42,778 nucleotides of DNA from a virus (lineage: Duplodnaviria; Heunggongvirae; Uroviricota; Caudoviricetes): the IMG/VR virus record IMGVR_UViG_2541047878_000002, positions 1-42,778 of that record. One strand, given 5' to 3'. The position numbers and the translations under genes were made by a program. The notes under the pieces are model-generated. The model was not told the DNA's origin and ran no database searches. It was given only the letters and a program-made list of their open reading frames with translations. Of the stretch, positions 2,776 through 17,601 are shown piece by piece. Every line of letters starts with the position of its first letter. Position 1 is the stretch's first letter.

Positions 2776-3087
2776 TTATTCGATGCGCACTCCTGGTATT
2801 TCGCCTTTTGATATTGCGAAGTCATAAATTTGCGCAGCACTATACCCATCTCGCATCCATGAATCTAATGCGCGAATAGCCTCGCTACGCTTTTTATCTT
2901 CTCTCTCATTTTTGATATCAACGAGGACATCAACGCAATTAAGGCAAATGTGGATTTTGTCCTTACATTCGATCATGGCGGCTTTACCATGATTTCCGCC
3001 ACACAGTGAGCATAAATCTTCAGGGTCTGGCTGGTATTTCTGTAACGTTAGATGGTTGAATGTTGAACAGGCCATAATCATCTCCAT
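2776..3087 (-). CDS. Hypothetical Cys-rich early-left protein (CxxC…CxxC, possible zinc ribbon)
   Basis: 103-aa ORF co-oriented with the pL operon; motifs CSLCGG…CLNC. Confidence 0.45.
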   Translation of the reverse strand: MEMIMACSTFNHLTLQKYQPDPEDLCSLCGGNHGKAAMIECKDKIHICLNCVDVLVDIKNEREDKKRSEAIRALDSWMRDGYSAAQIYDFAISKGEIPGVRIE

Positions 3088-3146
3088 AAAACAAAACTCG
3101 CCGTAGCGAGTTCAGATAAAAGAAATCCCCGCGAGTTCGAGGATTG

Positions 3147-3470
3147 TTATTCATTGCCGATATTCACCTTTATCGCGAACACCTTTACCGGTTTATCGCC
3201 GAAGTGCGGATGTGTGATTGTCTTGATTTCATATCCGTCATACGGAACATCAATTCTACGGCTGGAATCGTCGCGCTTCGGATATCCCTTTGTGATAATC
3301 AGGCGATCATACTCCCGGAACATAATTCGCTTATTCCAGTAGTCATTACACAGGCGATACTCTTCCGTTTTCTCTCTGCGAATCATGGCATCGAAGTATT
3401 CACCTTTAACGGCAAGTTGTAGGTTAGCCAAGGTTAACCTCCTGCGGCGGTTCTGCTGCAAAATACGCAA
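3147..3470 (-). CDS. Hypothetical protein, possibly DUF3850/ASCH-like
   Basis: 107 aa; pattern LQLAVKGEYFDAMIRREKTEEYRLCNDYW resembles the recalled ASCH/DUF3850 signature (YF.A...G.KT.E.R.ND); family assignment from memory only. Confidence 0.45.
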   Translation of the reverse strand: MRILQQNRRRRLTLANLQLAVKGEYFDAMIRREKTEEYRLCNDYWNKRIMFREYDRLIITKGYPKRDDSSRRIDVPYDGYEIKTITHPHFGDKPVKVFAIKVNIGNE

Positions 3471-4185
3471 TACCTTTATCCCAGATGGATTTTATGGTCG
3501 TCCATGTGACTGGTACTTTAATTTCAATCCGCCCGCTACCGTCACAGGTATCGCAATCATCATCGCCAAAGCATTCCGGGCAGCTGATAAACGTAGTTTC
3601 TGAAAATTCACCGGATAGCGCACCCTTAGCGCCGTTCTCGGCTGTTAGTCTCTTCGGCACCATGACCCAACCATCCGGAGTTACCGGAGAGTTGCCATTT
3701 ACATCGAAGTTTGGCTCTGCGTCCTGAACCAGGAGGATGTAACCATTCTTGGCAGTATCAAGTTCTAACGCCTCGGTGACGGTGCCGAAATAGCGATTAC
3801 CTAAATCAGCATCACAAGTGCTTACATCAATGGAAACTTCCATGCCTTCGATTAATTCTGGCAAGTTGTAAGTTTGGCTTACAGGTTGGCTACCCTGAAG
3901 CATGGAGGCGCGGTGACACCAGATAATCCAGCCAAGCGCCATATCCCATGCCATGTATTCTCTATCGCCATTTTTTGCCCTACGGCGATCTACAGATTCC
4001 CCGAAACGCTTCTCCATAAATAATTCATAGGCTGCTCGTTCATCCGATACTGCTGCCAGTGATGCCAGTGCAATTCGTGCCAGTTCTTCCGCTTCTTCTG
4101 CTGGAAGTACAACGTTGCTACCCGGTCCGTATGTTTCGCGCCACTGCTTGATTGTCAGCAGTCGCTCTTTGGTAATAGTGGTCAT
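3424..4185 (-). CDS. Hypothetical early-left protein with C-terminal Cys cluster
   Basis: 253-aa ORF, C-terminal CPECFGDDDCDTCDGSG motif; no family recognised. Confidence 0.5.
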   Translation of the reverse strand: MTTITKERLLTIKQWRETYGPGSNVVLPAEEAEELARIALASLAAVSDERAAYELFMEKRFGESVDRRRAKNGDREYMAWDMALGWIIWCHRASMLQGSQPVSQTYNLPELIEGMEVSIDVSTCDADLGNRYFGTVTEALELDTAKNGYILLVQDAEPNFDVNGNSPVTPDGWVMVPKRLTAENGAKGALSGEFSETTFISCPECFGDDDCDTCDGSGRIEIKVPVTWTTIKSIWDKGIAYFAAEPPQEVNLG

Positions 4186-5168: not shown

Positions 5169-5307
5169 ATCGCATTCAGATATTTGTTTTGATTCACTGA
5201 TGGAAAAGAATTTCTCTTAAGCAATTCCTCTCTCGATGGCATTGGTTTTACGCGTTGGCGAATAATCATTTCTGCCGGAAGAATGCCGGGATTGTATGCA
5301 AGTCCTC

Positions 5308-5589
5308 TCATGATTTACTCTCCACGAACTGGTCAACGGCCATGCTAAGTGACACACCTAAAGTCTCGATATGCTGCTGAATATCCTGTAGCGTCTGCGC
5401 CTGGGATAACAGGATTTCACGGTTGCATAATTCTTTAACCAGATGCTCAAACTTGCTGTAATAACCGATACGGCTTAGTGTTTCTTTCCCTGCATTCTCG
5501 CCTTCTTTGATAATTCCTCTTTCATTAAGAATCAGGTCGTGTTTTGTTCCAGTAATAACGTATTTTCCTAGGTCGATGTTTAGCTTCAT
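5308..5589 (-). CDS. Hypothetical protein
   Basis: 93-aa ORF co-oriented in the pL operon. Confidence 0.45.
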
Positions 5590-5605
5590 TGTTAATTACT
5601 CCATG

Positions 5606-5926
5606 TTAATTTATTCGTATGCCTGCTCTTTCTTCATCGAGTTTTTTTAGCTTGTATCGCATAGCTCTTACTGAATAAATTGAGCGGCAGGTTGCAATTG
5701 CTATTTCTTCTGCGGAGAACTTACCGAAAAGTGATACTTCGGCTCTTGTCCAGCGTCTTCCACGAAGTCGGCTAACAATGTCAGCGCCAATCCTTGTTGC
5801 TTTCGCCATAACTGCTTTTTCAGTCCTTTCCAGTTTTTCAGCGATAACTTCAACTGGCATTGTCGCCGCTACTTCGCGCAAGAAATCGACTTCCCATTTC
5901 TCCCATGGAGTCTTTTTCATAGGCAA
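5606..5926 (-). CDS. Hypothetical protein
   Basis: 106-aa ORF co-oriented in the pL operon. Confidence 0.45.
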   Translation of the reverse strand: MPMKKTPWEKWEVDFLREVAATMPVEVIAEKLERTEKAVMAKATRIGADIVSRLRGRRWTRAEVSLFGKFSAEEIAIATCRSIYSVRAMRYKLKKLDEERAGIRIN

Positions 5927-5931
5927 TACCG

Positions 5932-6420
5932 TTATTTGATAAGAAGTGAAGGTTTCCCAACTTTGAGTTGAGCGCCGGGGATATTTATTCCTGCTTTTAG
6001 TTGGTGTTTGATTGCCAGTTTGTCGGCTTTAATTGTCGTTTCAAACTCAACGTATTCAGGAGGAAGGGCGCTTGAGTCGATTATTTCTACAGTTTCTGAC
6101 GGTTTGCGGATTGTTACCTGGTGAATACCTGCTCGAATCTTTTTCTTGCCAACCATTTCAAGCGATGACGCTATATACGCCATAATGCTGTCAATCTTAT
6201 TTTGAATTACTGCTGCTCGTTCATTCAGTGACTTTGCCTCGTCCTTGAGGCGTTCAGCATAACCAGATTCATTTTTAATAATGGCAAGAAGTTGCTCTAT
6301 TTTATCGGTAAATTCTCCTTCCATTCCTTCTATTGTGTCAGCAATCATCTCTGGCTCTAAATCTGAATCCATCAGCTTTGCGTATTCATTGGCTATTTCA
6401 TACAGTTTGCTCACTGGCAA
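5932..6420 (-). CDS. Gp157-family protein (recombination-module accessory protein usually next to RecT/Sak)
   Basis: 162 aa, immediately downstream of RecT with overlapping ends; family call from memory. Confidence 0.55.
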   Translation of the reverse strand: MPVSKLYEIANEYAKLMDSDLEPEMIADTIEGMEGEFTDKIEQLLAIIKNESGYAERLKDEAKSLNERAAVIQNKIDSIMAYIASSLEMVGKKKIRAGIHQVTIRKPSETVEIIDSSALPPEYVEFETTIKADKLAIKHQLKAGINIPGAQLKVGKPSLLIK

Positions 6421-7309: not shown

Positions 7310-7617
7310 GCTGCTTCTCCAAAAATGTGTCTGCGTTTGAATATTGCGAAGGCATATTCAGCCTTAACTCTTTCGGTTATTGCATCCCAGAACCATTCAG
7401 CGGCTTTTTCCTGATAGTTACAGTCATCATCTTCCAGCCAGTCGATAGCGTCCTTAGTGTGTTCATCTGGTTTATATGAGCGAAGCATTTCGCTTATTGG
7501 GTCGCAACGTTTGCAGAGGCGATCAACTTCACTGTTGATTCGTTCGTAATCTTCATCAGTAAAACTTGCGATTATTTGCGATATTTCACGCTTATCATTC
7601 AGAGTCAGAATCATCAT
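7306..7617 (-). CDS. Hypothetical acidic protein at the position of lambda gam / P22 abc
   Basis: 103-aa ORF directly upstream of recT in the pL operon; no family recognised. Confidence 0.45.
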   Translation of the reverse strand: MMILTLNDKREISQIIASFTDEDYERINSEVDRLCKRCDPISEMLRSYKPDEHTKDAIDWLEDDDCNYQEKAAEWFWDAITERVKAEYAFAIFKRRHIFGEAA

Positions 7618-7698
7618 CTTTCTCCAGTTTTTTGTGCTGATTTAGCATTTCTTTCATCTGACGAATGAATTCTTCGTCTGACCAGTTATCTGTAAAAC

Positions 7699-7851
7699 TC
7701 ATTTCCTGCGATACCACGGAAGGTTGATAGCTGATTTCATCGCTTTATTTGCTTCAAGCCACATTTTGGAATCACCAATAAATCTGGCTATTACTGCTTT
7801 GTTTTGTGCTGCACGAAGCATCTGGTGATTGATGGTTATTTCATTGCGCAT
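7699..7851 (-). CDS. kil: Kil-like small protein (candidate host cell-division inhibitor)
   Basis: 50-aa ORF MRNEITINHQMLRAAQNKAVIARFIGDSKMWLEANKAMKSAINLPWYRRK; position just after cIII and the FIGD-containing core resemble recalled lambda Kil; below the ORF-track threshold, translated by hand. Confidence 0.45.
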   Translation of the reverse strand: MRNEITINHQMLRAAQNKAVIARFIGDSKMWLEANKAMKSAINLPWYRRK

Positions 7852-7970
7852 AACGCCTCCAGTTGTTTCTTTGCTGCTCTGATTAATTGTTTAACTCGGC
7901 GTGATAATTCAGATTCGAGCGGGTAGAAAGCGGACATGACGCCGCTACCCGCGAGCTGAAAGTGCATCAT
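7836..7970 (-). CDS. cIII: CIII-like protein (FtsH inhibitor)
   Basis: 44 aa MMHFQLAGSGVMSAFYPLESELSRRVKQLIRAAKKQLEALCAMK, similar to recalled lambda CIII (…AIAGWPVAGCPSESLLERITRKL…); GGAGTTA SD upstream; in-frame internal start of ORF-track entry 7836..8075. Confidence 0.65.
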   Translation of the reverse strand: MMHFQLAGSGVMSAFYPLESELSRRVKQLIRAAKKQLEALCAMK

Positions 7971-8032
7971 GGGTAACTCCTTATATTTGATTGCATAACG
8001 AAAACGCCTCTCGTGAAGCGTTATTGGTATGC

Positions 8033-8060
8033 ATATAAAAAGGCCCTCACACTGGAGGGC
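8033..8060 (-). terminator. Intrinsic terminator in the pL operon (tL1-like)
   Basis: minus-strand RNA …GCCCUC-cagugu-GAGGGC-CUUUUUAUAU; 6-bp GC stem plus U-run, between the AT-rich ORF and cIII. Confidence 0.5.
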
Positions 8061-8164
8061 AAAGAAGATTTCCAATAATCAGAACAAGTCGGCTCCTGTT
8101 TAGTTACGAGCGACATTGCTCCGTGTATTCACTCGTTGGAATGAATACACAGTGCTTATTCGTA

Positions 8165-8635
8165 CTAATAAAATACCCAATTTTCTGTTTCTTGGTTGTG
8201 TCCAAAGTTATATTCAATATCTGGTGTTGATGTATCAATATTCTTCATCCCATCAACAAGAGTTGATACAACAGCCAAATCTTGTTTGATTCTCATCAAA
8301 TGGTATTTCTTTCGGCGCAATAAACTTTCAATGGCAAGTTTCTTCGTCGGGAATGCAAAAGATCTTTCTGCATTTTTTGCTACTTTCTTAATTGCATATC
8401 TATTTCTCCTTTGTTTCCATTCCTGTAACCACTGATTTGGTGCTGGTTTAAAATTAACAATCCAATGCGCAGGAACCAACCATGCATAATGCTCTGTCTG
8501 ATGAAAAGCTATATATTGAAGTGCGAATATTTTGATTCCATCTTCTTCAACTGTCGCTTGGAATCTCCAGAAAACAGGCATTCCATCATGTTCAGTTTCT
8601 GATTCAGGAAAAGGTACGCTCCATGATTTTGTCAT
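8165..8635 (-). CDS. Hypothetical AT-rich pL-operon accessory protein (156 aa)
   Basis: ORF with GAGGTGA SD; visibly lower GC than surrounding genes; sits between N and cIII where lambda carries ral/sieB/ea10. Confidence 0.55.
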   Translation of the reverse strand: MTKSWSVPFPESETEHDGMPVFWRFQATVEEDGIKIFALQYIAFHQTEHYAWLVPAHWIVNFKPAPNQWLQEWKQRRNRYAIKKVAKNAERSFAFPTKKLAIESLLRRKKYHLMRIKQDLAVVSTLVDGMKNIDTSTPDIEYNFGHNQETENWVFY

Positions 8636-8690
8636 ATCTCACCTCAAATAAGTGGTTTGCTGCGAAAAAGTAAAACAATGATATTCACTT

Positions 8691-8960
8691 CTATTTGTCA
8701 TCGTGTAAGTGACGCAGGTTATTAACTCGCGGCCAGTAATATTTTGGCTTGGCACGAGATCCGGGTCTTGGACCTACACAAACTATATAGCTCTCTTCTT
8801 TCCTCGGAAGGCCAGGTGCATCTAGCAGACGGCCTAGTTCGAATTTTTTTACGTTGACACCAGGAGGAATCACCTCGACGATAAACCCGATTTTTACCTT
8901 CGTTACACCGTTTGATGAGCTTGACCATTTAACTTCATCGTTCAATTTGAACTTCATCAT
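8691..8960 (-). CDS. Hypothetical pL-operon accessory protein (89 aa)
   Basis: MMKFKLNDEVKWSSSSNGVTKVKIGFIVEVIPPG…; start trimmed to the ATGATG at 8955-8960 so it does not overlap N; immediately downstream of N. Confidence 0.5.
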   Translation of the reverse strand: MMKFKLNDEVKWSSSSNGVTKVKIGFIVEVIPPGVNVKKFELGRLLDAPGLPRKEESYIVCVGPRPGSRAKPKYYWPRVNNLRHLHDDK

Positions 8961-8965
8961 TAACC

Positions 8966-9271
8966 TCAATCGTAATAAGCTGGAATTGATTTTCTGCGTT
9001 GTTTCTGGCGACCAACACAAGTCACACCCATTTCACTGCGTGGCTTGCGGTAGTAAATACGGTTCTGTTTACTCTCGACTTCTTCTGCCTTCTTGCAGCG
9101 AAGGTTTCCGAGTGATGCTGCTTTATCTGCTCTGACGCAACCAGAGAGCTTTAGCGCAATTTTTCGCGCCAGTCGCTGCTCTTGCATTGCCTGTTCACGT
9201 TGAGCCTGTCTGCGTGCTCTGCGGCGATTTCTGGTGTTATCGTCAGCCAGATATGTAATGACTACTGTCAT
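8966..9271 (-). CDS. N: N-like transcription antiterminator
   Basis: 101 aa from ATG at 9271; arginine-rich motif NRRRARRQAQREQA near N-terminus; C-terminus RIYYRKPRSEMGVTCVGRQKQRRKSIP resembles lambda N C-terminus (…TWYSKPGERGITCSGRQKIKGKSIPLI); cognate nutL/nutR present. Confidence 0.8.
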   Translation of the reverse strand: MTVVITYLADDNTRNRRRARRQAQREQAMQEQRLARKIALKLSGCVRADKAASLGNLRCKKAEEVESKQNRIYYRKPRSEMGVTCVGRQKQRRKSIPAYYD

Positions 9272-9311
9272 GTTGACCTCCGGGAAGGTACACATCCTTG
9301 TGTGTCGATGA

Positions 9312-9431
9312 TTATTTGTTTTTGCGTTCCCACATCCAGTCATCTACTTCAGACCAGATGGTGAAACCGAAGCCGATGGCGAATGTGGTAACTAAACCAC
9401 CGAGAATTGGGTTGGTAATGATGTCTAACAT
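9312..9431 (-). CDS. Small hydrophobic peptide (39 aa) in the N leader
   Basis: MLDIITNPILGGLVTTFAIGFGFTIWSEVDDWMWERKNK; GAGGA SD 7 nt upstream of ATG; translated by hand (below ORF-track threshold). Confidence 0.35.
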   Translation of the reverse strand: MLDIITNPILGGLVTTFAIGFGFTIWSEVDDWMWERKNK

Positions 9432-9603
9432 TTTCTGTTCCTCAGATGATTAGCTTTGGTGGTGTGGTCGGTGGGAGACCCATTTCGACCCGCTTCGTCC
9501 GACTTCAATTCGGCAATAGTCCCGCAGGCCTCGCCGCTTTACGTGCGACATATTCCCGTCCATGAACCCTTCACCACACCCCAAAGCCAACTGCTCTTTG
9601 GTT

Positions 9604-9643
9604 CCCGCATTTCGGCGGGACAATCCCATCAATGTTAAAGAGC
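9604..9643 (-). promoter_or_regulatory. nutL (boxA gctctttaaca + boxB hairpin cccgc-cgaaat-gcggg)
   Basis: boxA and boxB read on the minus strand are identical to those found downstream of cro (nutR); boxA matches the rrn-type boxA consensus. Confidence 0.6.
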
Positions 9644-9684
9644 CTGCCAATCTGTTCCGTTTGGCTTCCAGCGTCCTGCTGATG

Positions 9685-9775
9685 GCTTAAATTTAAGATC
9701 TCTTTAATTAATGGTCAAGAGTATTTTTGAAGAAAACTTAAATTTTCTTTCGTAACTTAAGTTTTGCTTTGATTT
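9685..9775 (-). promoter_or_regulatory. OL/pL region with P22-type operators
   Basis: operator ATTTAAG-atct-CTTTAAT at 9691-9708 shares half-sites with OR1; further operator-like sites at 9736-9772; candidate pL -35 ttgacc (rc of 9713-9718) and -10 taaatt (rc of 9689-9694). Confidence 0.5.
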
Positions 9776-9783
9776 TTAAAGGA

Positions 9784-9807
9784 AATAAAAAAAGGGGCGA
9801 ATGCCCC
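9784..9807 (-). terminator. Intrinsic terminator downstream of the repressor gene
   Basis: minus-strand RNA GGGGC-auuc-GCCCC followed by UUUUUUUAUUU, immediately after the c2 stop. Confidence 0.5.
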
Positions 9808-9808
9808 C

Positions 9809-10459
9809 TTATGGAAGGTTTGCTAGTTTTGCATCGACAACTACGCCGATGATTTTGCAGTTTCCGTTGATCTCGATCATCGGATATTGTGGGTTAAGTG
9901 GTTTTAGAAACTTCCTGCCTGCATCAATAACTAACTTCTTGAAAGTTGCCTCGTTTTCTCCTTCGAGCTTTGCAACTACCAGTTTCCCGTTACGCGGCTC
10001 TACTTCAGGATCGACGAGTATTATCATTCCTTCAGGGATACTGAGACCGGCCGGAGCCGTCATTGAGTCTCCCTTCACGTCCAACCAAAACGAATCTTCT
10101 GAACAGTCTACGGTTGTATCGTACCAGTTATCTATTGCACGCTTATGATATGGTTCTACAGCTTCCATCCAGCATCCTGCGCTCACCCAGCTAATCAGAG
10201 GGTATGACCCTCTTGGATCATGCCTACTGTGATAGGCAATGTTTGAAAGACTTTCCTCTCCTTTCATCAGATAGTCAGGGGAACACTTCAACGCATTAGC
10301 CAGGGCGAGAAGATTCTCTCCATTTGGCTCTGTCTCAGAGCGTTCCCACTGAGATATGGCAACATTAGACACGCCGACCATCTTTCCAAGTGCGGCCTGT
10401 CTGATCTTGAGTTCTTTTCTCCGAGCGCGAATGCGCTCTCCCATCAATTGAGTTTTCAT
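9809..10459 (-). CDS. c2: Prophage repressor, P22 C2 type (LexA-like S24 autopeptidase fold)
   Basis: 216 aa, near-identical to recalled P22 C2 (MNTQLMGERIRARRKKLKIRQAALGKMVGVSNVAISQWERSETEPNGENLLAL…); HTH N-domain plus C-terminal S24-like domain. Confidence 0.95.
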   Translation of the reverse strand: MKTQLMGERIRARRKELKIRQAALGKMVGVSNVAISQWERSETEPNGENLLALANALKCSPDYLMKGEESLSNIAYHSRHDPRGSYPLISWVSAGCWMEAVEPYHKRAIDNWYDTTVDCSEDSFWLDVKGDSMTAPAGLSIPEGMIILVDPEVEPRNGKLVVAKLEGENEATFKKLVIDAGRKFLKPLNPQYPMIEINGNCKIIGVVVDAKLANLP

Positions 10460-17445: not shown

Positions 17446-17520
17446 GGGTCAGTCGTATAAAGGTCATTACGGAAGGCTGTTAACCTTCTTATCGTGGTTC
17501 GAGTCCACGCTGTCCCGCCA
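17446..17520 (+). tRNA. tRNA-like gene, anticodon GUU (Asn), CCA encoded
   Basis: hand-folded cloverleaf: acceptor GGGTCAG/CTGTCCC (one U-U mismatch), D-loop with GG, anticodon stem gaagg/ccttc with loop cuGUUaa, T-arm cgtgg-TTCGAGT-ccacg, discriminator G + CCA. Confidence 0.55.
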
Positions 17521-17525
17521 AACAT

Positions 17526-17601
17526 GCTGGTTTAGCTCCAATGGTAGAGCGGTCGCCTTGTAAGCGAATGGGTAGCGGTTCAAGTCCGTTAACCAGCACC
17601 A
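17526..17601 (+). tRNA. tRNA-like gene, anticodon UGU (Thr), CCA encoded
   Basis: hand-folded cloverleaf: acceptor GCTGGTT/AACCAGC (7/7), D-arm TAGCTCCAATGGTAGAGC, anticodon loop cuUGUaa, T-arm agcgg-TTCAAGT-ccgtt, discriminator A + CCA. Confidence 0.6.

Follow-up and report, generated by a model that had tools for sequence, protein, structure and literature searches.

ORF89 and ORF156, two conserved accessory genes between N and cIII of a lambdoid Escherichia coli prophage, are predicted to be expressed immediately early together with N

The DNA analysed here is IMG/VR record IMGVR_UViG_2541047878_000002 (the window, 42,778 nucleotides (nt) at its full length), which represents a mosaic P22-like/lambdoid prophage of E. 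coli, with phages Gally, HZ41, Kapi1, and vB_EcoP-611R6 as its closest relatives. Between the antiterminator gene N and cIII, its early left operon, read from a pL-like promoter, carries two open reading frames (ORFs), ORF89 (89 amino acids (aa)) and ORF156 (156 aa). Both are real protein-coding genes under strong purifying selection, and both are orphans by function, not by sequence. According to the placement of predicted terminators, they probably lie on the same N-independent, immediate-early RNA as N. An earlier note, made from the sequence alone, had pointed to these two ORFs; the coordinates, the ORF sizes, and the terminator at 8033-8060 that it gave are all correct. The features from the repressor gene to kil are as follows.

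9809-10459: cI-like repressor gene
9810-9791: terminator of the cI-like repressor gene, directly upstream of the pL-like promoter
9718-9690, minus strand: pL-like sigma-70 promoter, TTGACC-17-TAAATT (consensus scan)
9643-9633, minus strand: putative nutL, boxA-like element GCTCTTTAACA (from the lambda nut-site consensus)
9620-9603, minus strand: putative nutL, boxB-like hairpin TCCCGC-CGAAAT-GCGGGA (from the lambda nut-site consensus)
9312-9431, minus strand: hydrophobic 39-aa ORF (MLDIITNPILGGLVTTFAIGFGFTIWSEVDDWMWERKNK), phrog_7482, between the putative nutL and N
8966-9271 (to 9343 from an upstream ATG), minus strand: N antiterminator, 101 aa (phrog_271, 2.6e-34)
8691-8960, minus strand: ORF89 (phrog_11941)
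8633-8674, minus strand: module junction, a T-rich relic plus the 31-nt linker GCAGCAAACCACTTATTTGAGGTGAGATATG (linker at 8633-8663)
8165-8635, minus strand: ORF156, ATG...TAG (phrog_1636)
8123-8150, minus strand: 12-bp hairpin in the ORF156 3' untranslated region (UTR)
8060-8033, minus strand: intrinsic terminator, stem GCCCTC-CAGTGT-GAGGGC at 8060-8043, then CTTTTTAT
8022-8003, minus strand: second terminator-like hairpin, AACGCTTCACGAGAGGCGTT, then TTCGTT, just upstream of cIII
7836-7970, minus strand: cIII (Pfam cIII, 3.5e-28)
7699-7851, minus strand: kil (Pfam Lambda_Kil, 1.7e-20)

A 103-aa ORF, RecT, and a Mu-Gam-like gene are located further downstream, beyond kil. We know of no lambda gene at the place occupied by the 39-aa hydrophobic ORF.

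ORF156 is preceded by a good Shine-Dalgarno sequence (GAGGTGAGAT-ATG). As the earlier note had observed, it is AT-rich compared with its neighbours and is followed by a terminator; its GC content is 0.359 (0.274 at third codon positions) versus a window mean of 0.473 (standard deviation 0.042), which places it in the lowest 0.5% of 471-nt windows. The homologues from Pectobacterium and Brenneria also lie 6 points of GC under their own loci, suggesting that the AT bias belongs to the gene lineage of ORF156. In codon-level comparisons, the proportion of nonsynonymous differences was 0.18-0.27, while that of synonymous differences was 0.78-0.89 and saturated. Twenty-two homologues were aligned (55-99% identity, 156-163 aa), with the length kept across genera; they came from Escherichia, Pectobacterium, Brenneria, Cronobacter, Rosenbergiella, and others.

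ORF156 matches phrog_1636 over its full length (E 2.7e-112, residues 1-156 of 156). Its protein is 100% identical to L0079 of phage 933W and to the homologue of many phages carrying Shiga toxin (Stx) 1 or 2, and 99.4% identical to gp45 of phage HK97. The identical protein was found on at least 1000 contigs. Among 50,697 phage records, 87 contain the gene; of 5426 complete E. coli genomes, 598 do, some with as many as 4 copies. It is annotated everywhere as "hypothetical" or "prophage protein", and in the old GenBank record of H-19B the gene was left unannotated between gene 17 and N (L002, 1569-2240).

With an exhaustive profile search, the family grew to some 87 cluster representatives (130-155 aa), which correspond to phrog_13631, phrog_25384, and phrog_28215, and no member of this wider superfamily carries a Pfam domain or a name. 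The hosts of the superfamily are both temperate and virulent phages of several genera. Only G33, E46, T47, K87, and A101 are near-invariant, which as read from the alignment is no catalytic signature; the C-terminal part contains the conserved motif YNFGHN.ETE.W.F. Two multi-domain proteins recovered by the same search (P0090 and P0112) were rejected as repetitive false positives. Distant relatives were located in early accessory regions of other phages; in three loci a C5-DNA methylase gene lies one to four genes upstream of the relative, and in one locus a homologue of the restriction-alleviation protein Lar is encoded two genes upstream.

The structural model of ORF156 is poor (mean predicted local distance difference test (pLDDT) of 59), with three strands in residues 23-55, a long helix at residues 98-130, and low-confidence segments at residues 1-17 and 78-92; this low-confidence model had no fold match. 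The protein has an isoelectric point (pI) of 9.1 and a basic segment with 16 lysine or arginine residues (residues 71-120); the predicted helix is amphipathic, and no transmembrane-like hydrophobic stretch was found. This predicted architecture suggests binding of nucleic acid or protein, possibly as a dimer.

ORF89 follows N after a gap of only 5 nt between stop and start codons, and its good Shine-Dalgarno sequence (GAGG) overlaps the N stop codon, suggesting that its translation is coupled to that of N. A second in-frame ATG at 8957 would give an 88-aa form, which was found on 190 contigs. The GC content of the gene (0.441) is ordinary for the window. At the codon level, the ratio of nonsynonymous to synonymous substitution rates (dN/dS) was 0.07 versus a Cronobacter homologue and 0.14 versus an E. 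coli homologue of 61% identity. Twenty-five homologues of 85-94 aa (56-92% identity) from Escherichia, Cronobacter, Pluralibacter, Leclercia, and unclassified Enterobacterales were aligned, and here as well the length is kept across genera. All of them share the invariant C-terminal block ESY.VCV...PG..AKPKYYWPR, which reads ESYIVCV..PGSRAKPKYYWPR in the window protein. ORF89 matches the phrog_11941 profile (E 6.3e-46, residues 1-87 of 88); it is carried by 50 of the 5426 complete E. coli genomes and by none of the 50,697 phage records. Annotation by the Prokaryotic Genome Annotation Pipeline (PGAP) is missing for the gene in 16 of the 25 genomes listed out of the 50 that carry it, and the gaps include 4119-4448 of L004 and 3837-4166 of L005. 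Genes of this family are always located within the N-to-cIII/kil interval of lambdoid prophages, beside genes for Ral, GP17, and Nmad5. In the E. coli prophage L015, a 208-aa Nmad5 (nucleotide-modification-associated) protein is encoded between N and the ORF89-like gene (2837-3463).

The AlphaFold2 model of ORF89 is confident (pLDDT 85.7, predicted template modelling score 0.74) and consists of a small, five-stranded SH3-like beta-barrel. The fold is thus confidently predicted to be a generic SH3/Tudor/KOW-like barrel; in the fold comparison, Tudor, PWWP, and R67-DHFR structures outscored NusG against the model, and a search of BFVD returned only uncharacterised viral proteins with E >= 0.02. 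Pfam KOW (PF00467) did not match the window protein and matched two of the 25 family members far below threshold (best E 0.12), while Hva1_TUDOR (PF11160) matched four of the 25, all sub-threshold. These matches are consistent with the predicted fold, and membership of either family is not established. The small barrels of this kind, such as the NusG KOW domain and Hva1_TUDOR, have no counterpart of the invariant C-terminal PGSRAKPKYYWPR of ORF89. The protein is basic (pI 9.9) and has no transmembrane-like hydrophobic stretch.

The sequence profiles of Pfam, NCBIfam, PADLOC, and the PDB gave nothing above noise for ORF89, ORF156, or their family alignments; the PDB profile searches were empty for both families, and in PADLOC-DB v2 no match was obtained for ORF89 and a single noise match for ORF156 (Cas1_II, E 0.018, 12 bits). 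The earlier statement that neither protein could be assigned to a family is thus valid for Pfam, NCBIfam, and PADLOC; it does not extend to PHROG, where phrog_1636 and phrog_11941 exist, and ORF156 has long been catalogued. A comparison with lambda Ral and Ea10 and with gp17, which the same note had recommended, was negative, at about 0 bits for both families. For Ral (PF11058), no Pfam match was obtained at E <= 1, and the ORF89 and ORF156 profiles scored about 0 bits against the Ral proteins of Sf6 and Cronobacter; for gp17 (PF17420, GP17), there was no Pfam match, and the profiles scored -1 to -2.5 bits against H-19B gp17 and the GP17 protein of L017; against the 933W Ssb/Ea10 homologue, the scores were -1.6 to -2.3 bits. 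Profile comparison with Nmad5, DUF7685, DUF7167, HK97 gp48/49, and Sf6 gp34/36 also revealed no similarity to either protein. In the literature search, no publication or phenotype was found for ORF89, ORF156, HK97 gp45, or L0079, and the matches to "gp45" concerned other phages. In the part of the supplementary files of an accessory-gene screen (PMC12373910) that a text search covers, neither protein sequence was present.

The timing of expression was predicted from the order of promoter and terminators. On the minus strand, the consensus scan detected no terminator-like site from pL (9718-9690) to 8060, and no promoter-like site was seen from 9690 to 7696, by consensus scan only. The terminator at 8060-8033 is the first canonical one after pL and hence would act, in tandem with the hairpin at 8022-8003, as the equivalent of lambda tL1; the 8060-8033 hairpin is marked as a putative terminator of gene 45 in the HK97 GenBank record. 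The earlier note had taken this terminator to make ORF156 dependent on N antitermination. That reading is reversed here, since the terminator is located 3' of both genes and none was detected between pL and 8060, which predicts N-independent, immediate-early expression of ORF89 and ORF156 together with N. Being the first gene distal to the terminator, cIII is predicted to be N-dependent, and the N-dependent genes of this operon would be cIII, kil, and the recombination genes. A hairpin after ORF89 is an AU-rich relic and not significant (z -0.97). Comparable orders were found elsewhere: in Cronobacter prophages, the ORF89 homologue begins 8 nt after N and has a strong terminator directly behind it, and the E. 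coli prophage L015 has the order N, Nmad5, ORF89-like gene, and terminator.

A further observation concerns how these genes are packaged. The window contains a single copy of the 31-nt linker GCAGCAAACCACTTATTTGAGGTGAGATATG, where none is expected by chance, and 11 of the 20 fetched loci also have one copy each (L001, L002, L003, L004, L005, L008, L009, L010, L011, L012, and L016). It always ends in the start codon of the gene that occupies the slot: this is ORF156 in HK97, H-19B, 933W, 611R6, and two E. coli prophages, whereas Sf6 and two Cronobacter prophages have ral there, a further Cronobacter prophage a DUF7685 gene, and Pluralibacter an ORF89-like gene. Translation shows the linker to combine the 3' end of a phage-21-type N gene (...GSKPLI, stop) with a Shine-Dalgarno sequence; in the window, HK97, and 933W, it persists as a non-coding relic. 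These three share an ORF156 unit made up of about 28 nt of 5' linker, the gene, a structured 3' UTR, and the terminator, followed by a variable gene (cIII in the window and HK97, ssb in 933W). Only the ~28 nt 5' of the ORF156 ATG are conserved; beyond them lies the 3' end of N in some phages and ORF89 in the window, which makes a promoter carried by the cassette implausible.

The 3' UTR of ORF156 (8025-8170) has a minimum free energy of -45.9 kcal/mol (z -5.0 versus shuffles) and contains the 12-bp hairpin, a second helix, and the terminator; HK97 and 933W keep this UTR along with the gene. It could serve RNA processing or stability or give rise to a 3'-UTR-derived small RNA, and an Rfam scan of 7600-9900 revealed no known RNA family. 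Elsewhere in the window, two tRNA genes are present in the late-regulatory region (17446-17517 and 17526-17598, plus strand; Rfam tRNA, 55 and 61 bits).

From this comparison of loci, the N-to-cIII interval is a hot-swap slot whose cassettes would be exchanged by recombination at conserved junctions such as the 31-nt linker, and ORF89 and ORF156 are independently mobile accessory-gene cassettes. That the interval is an accessory slot agrees with the earlier note; its occupants in related phages are ral, gene 17, ea10/ssb, and others. In the Cronobacter prophage L009, a terminator-plus-linker element is directly repeated on either side of ral (5266-5339 and 5575-5646), and a second pair of repeats (6030-6074 and 6302-6346) flanks another small gene, so that this interval looks like an array of terminator-bounded cassettes. 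In a further Cronobacter prophage (L010), a BstA_C-domain protein (3167-4090) adjoins the repressor; BstA is an abortive-infection defence protein.

The N proteins of these phages show a related kind of exchange. The window N is phage-21/Sf6-like, with the arginine-rich motif NTRNRRRARRQ and the C-terminal tail ...GRQKQRRKSIPAYYD. Among the window, L003, L004, L008-L011, and L016, N ends in either of two C-terminal tails that replace each other, ...GRQKMKLGSKPLI or ...GRQKQRGKSIPAYYD, and the joint lies at a conserved GVTC(V/S)GRQK. The second tail (...KSIPAYYD) precedes ORF89 in the window, E. coli C41, and Cronobacter. Sf6 has this tail without ORF89, an ORF89-like gene follows the other tail in L016, and other genes separate the ORF89-like gene from N in L015 and L017.

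The closest known counterparts of ORF156 are HK97 gp45 and 933W L0079, which are the same protein and share its 5' linker, structured 3' UTR, terminator, and position after N. In both phages the homologue directly follows N, whereas ORF89 intervenes in the window; downstream of ORF156 lies cIII in the window and HK97, ssb/ea10 in 933W, and gene 17 in H-19B. Ral of lambda, P22, and Sf6 belongs to the same operon and slot and is likewise small, non-enzymatic, and early, and ral of Sf6 and the Cronobacter prophages has the same 31-nt linker upstream; however, it has no sequence similarity to ORF89 or ORF156. In lambda, ral is located beyond tL1 and is N-dependent, whereas ORF89 and ORF156 stand before the first terminator.

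Morons have been defined for HK97 and HK022 (Juhala et al. 2000; summarised in PMC3594210). ORF156 is moron-like in its deviant base composition, in the factor-independent terminator that lies immediately 3' and moves with the gene, and in being "extra" relative to lambda. It is unlike a moron in that the scan detected no promoter belonging to the gene and that the conserved upstream sequence leaves no room for one, the gene lying within, and depending on, the pL transcript. A classical moron with its own promoter was rejected for ORF156, as no promoter was found in the consensus scan. The base composition of ORF89 is not deviant, which departs from the moron criterion.

Taken together, the constraints on function are that both proteins are small, basic, and soluble, with no enzyme signature, a predicted first-minute expression alongside N, a patchy distribution, cassette mobility, and Ral among their slot-mates, and that distant ORF156 relatives lie near genes for C5-DNA methylases or Lar. 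We propose that ORF89 and ORF156 are immediate-early accessory cassettes encoding stoichiometric binders for host take-over or counter-defence, and give this whole package, which is drawn from timing, position, neighbourhood, and the lack of enzyme features, a probability of roughly 0.4. Within the package, it is well supported that the genes are real immediate-early accessory cassettes. Transcription from pL would read through nutL, N, ORF89, and ORF156 and stop at 8060-8033 until N accumulates; both proteins would then be made together with N, immediately early and without antitermination, ORF89 through translational coupling to N. Each would stoichiometrically bind some macromolecule of the host or of a rival phage, in the manner of the early-acting Ral, Gam, and T7 Ocr; ORF89 may bind via its SH3/KOW-like barrel and invariant basic-aromatic tail, and ORF156 via its small beta-sheet, highly basic segment, and long amphipathic helix. 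An anti-defence role is a plausible guess from position and neighbourhood; counter-defence taken alone is possible, leaning to doubtful. A bolder version, which we consider distinctly unlikely, is that ORF156 founds a widespread, structurally novel immediate-early superfamily that neutralises host immunity or nucleic-acid surveillance, while ORF89 is a KOW/SH3 mimic that hits NusG-S10/Rho or another host hub.

Several observations weigh against the proposed immediate-early take-over or counter-defence role. Neither protein is similar to any characterised anti-defence protein (Ral, gp17, and Ea10 scoring about 0 bits), and guilt by association is weak because early-left regions also hold genes for recombination, inhibition of cell division, and exclusion. 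The immediate-early status comes from a consensus terminator scan, and Rho-dependent or weak terminators, such as the AU-rich hairpin after ORF89, may act before 8060. In locus L017, a terminator is located before the ORF89-like gene. In Pectobacterium and Brenneria, the ORF156 homologue closes the distal part of the operon, with xis-int as the next genes, and must therefore be N-dependent or delayed-early-dependent there.

Other functions were weighed on the same evidence. It is rather unlikely that ORF156 regulates by binding nucleic acid, shuts off the host, or is toxic in the way Kil is, instead of inhibiting a dedicated defence system. The very basic residues 71-120 with their 16 lysines and arginines, a predicted sheet-plus-helix that recalls small DNA-binding domains, the predicted early expression beside N and near Kil, and a superfamily that spans temperate and virulent phages of several genera, suggesting a general host target, would all suit such a role; however, ORF156 has no helix-turn-helix or zinc motif, and it is dispensable, many lambdoid phages being without the gene. 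Lambda and P22 sieB are superinfection exclusion genes of the N-cIII interval, and SieB is a membrane protein expressed in lysogens from its own promoter. Like sieB, ORF89 and ORF156 are accessory genes between N and cIII; unlike SieB, they have no transmembrane segment, no own promoter detected, and no Pfam or PADLOC match. ORF156 could by analogy be a moron-type gene for lysogenic conversion or superinfection exclusion, active in the repressed prophage and protecting the lysogen as lambda sieB does. Its deviant composition, seen in the window and in the two diverged homologues checked (Pectobacterium and Brenneria prophages), the terminator of its own that moves with it, the interval shared with lambda and P22 sieB, and its high frequency in prophages all point that way. 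We nevertheless regard it as quite improbable, given that the consensus scan shows no promoter-like site upstream on the coding strand, that the ~28 nt conserved 5' of the ATG make a cassette promoter implausible, that ORF156 lacks the transmembrane segment expected from the membrane protein SieB, and that no PADLOC or Pfam SieB match was obtained.

For ORF89, a role as an accessory of N/Nus-controlled elongation was also considered, in which a free KOW/SH3-like domain mimics or competes with the KOW domain of NusG (partners S10/NusE and Rho) and thereby tunes antitermination or blocks Rho. The gene stands directly after N, seemingly translationally coupled to it, co-occurs with the N tail ...KSIPAYYD in the window, E. 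coli C41, and Cronobacter prophages, encodes a basic protein, and belongs to a family with sub-threshold Pfam KOW matches in two of 25 members. Nevertheless, this role is very improbable: SH3-like barrels are ubiquitous, with Tudor, PWWP, and R67-DHFR all outscoring NusG, and the KOW matches are far below threshold; genes intervene after N in L015 and L017, L016 has the other N tail, and Sf6 carries the same tail without ORF89; moreover, most phages that use N do not have the gene (50 of 5426 E. coli genomes and 0 of 50,697 phage records). That ORF89, ORF156, or both represent passenger DNA, decaying or without function, as chance ORFs or recombination relics, is scarcely credible. PGAP does skip ORF89 in 16 of the 25 listed genomes, and clear recombination relics exist in the region; yet strong purifying selection, lengths kept across genera, good ribosome-binding sites, the confident fold of ORF89, and the ORF156 protein found unchanged on at least 1000 contigs all speak against it.

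At present, the two genes add two conserved hypothetical proteins to a phage region already well known to vary, and their interest is accordingly modest. Their placement ahead of the first terminator is unusual, and the linker-defined cassette architecture is unusually clean. About 11% of the complete E. coli genomes carry ORF156, as do the main Stx phages, which puts it among the most frequent uncharacterised genes known from the Stx-converting phages of clinical importance and from the model phage HK97. The design of linker plus terminator offers a concrete account of accessory-gene exchange beside N, and the 31-nt linker is a search handle for alternative cargo genes of the slot. If ORF89 or ORF156 does block a defence or rewire transcription, the counter-defence repertoire would gain a new protein family, host range and induction of Stx phages could be affected, and the linker-delimited slot beside N would be the source of a new class of first-minute factors for counter-defence or transcription take-over.

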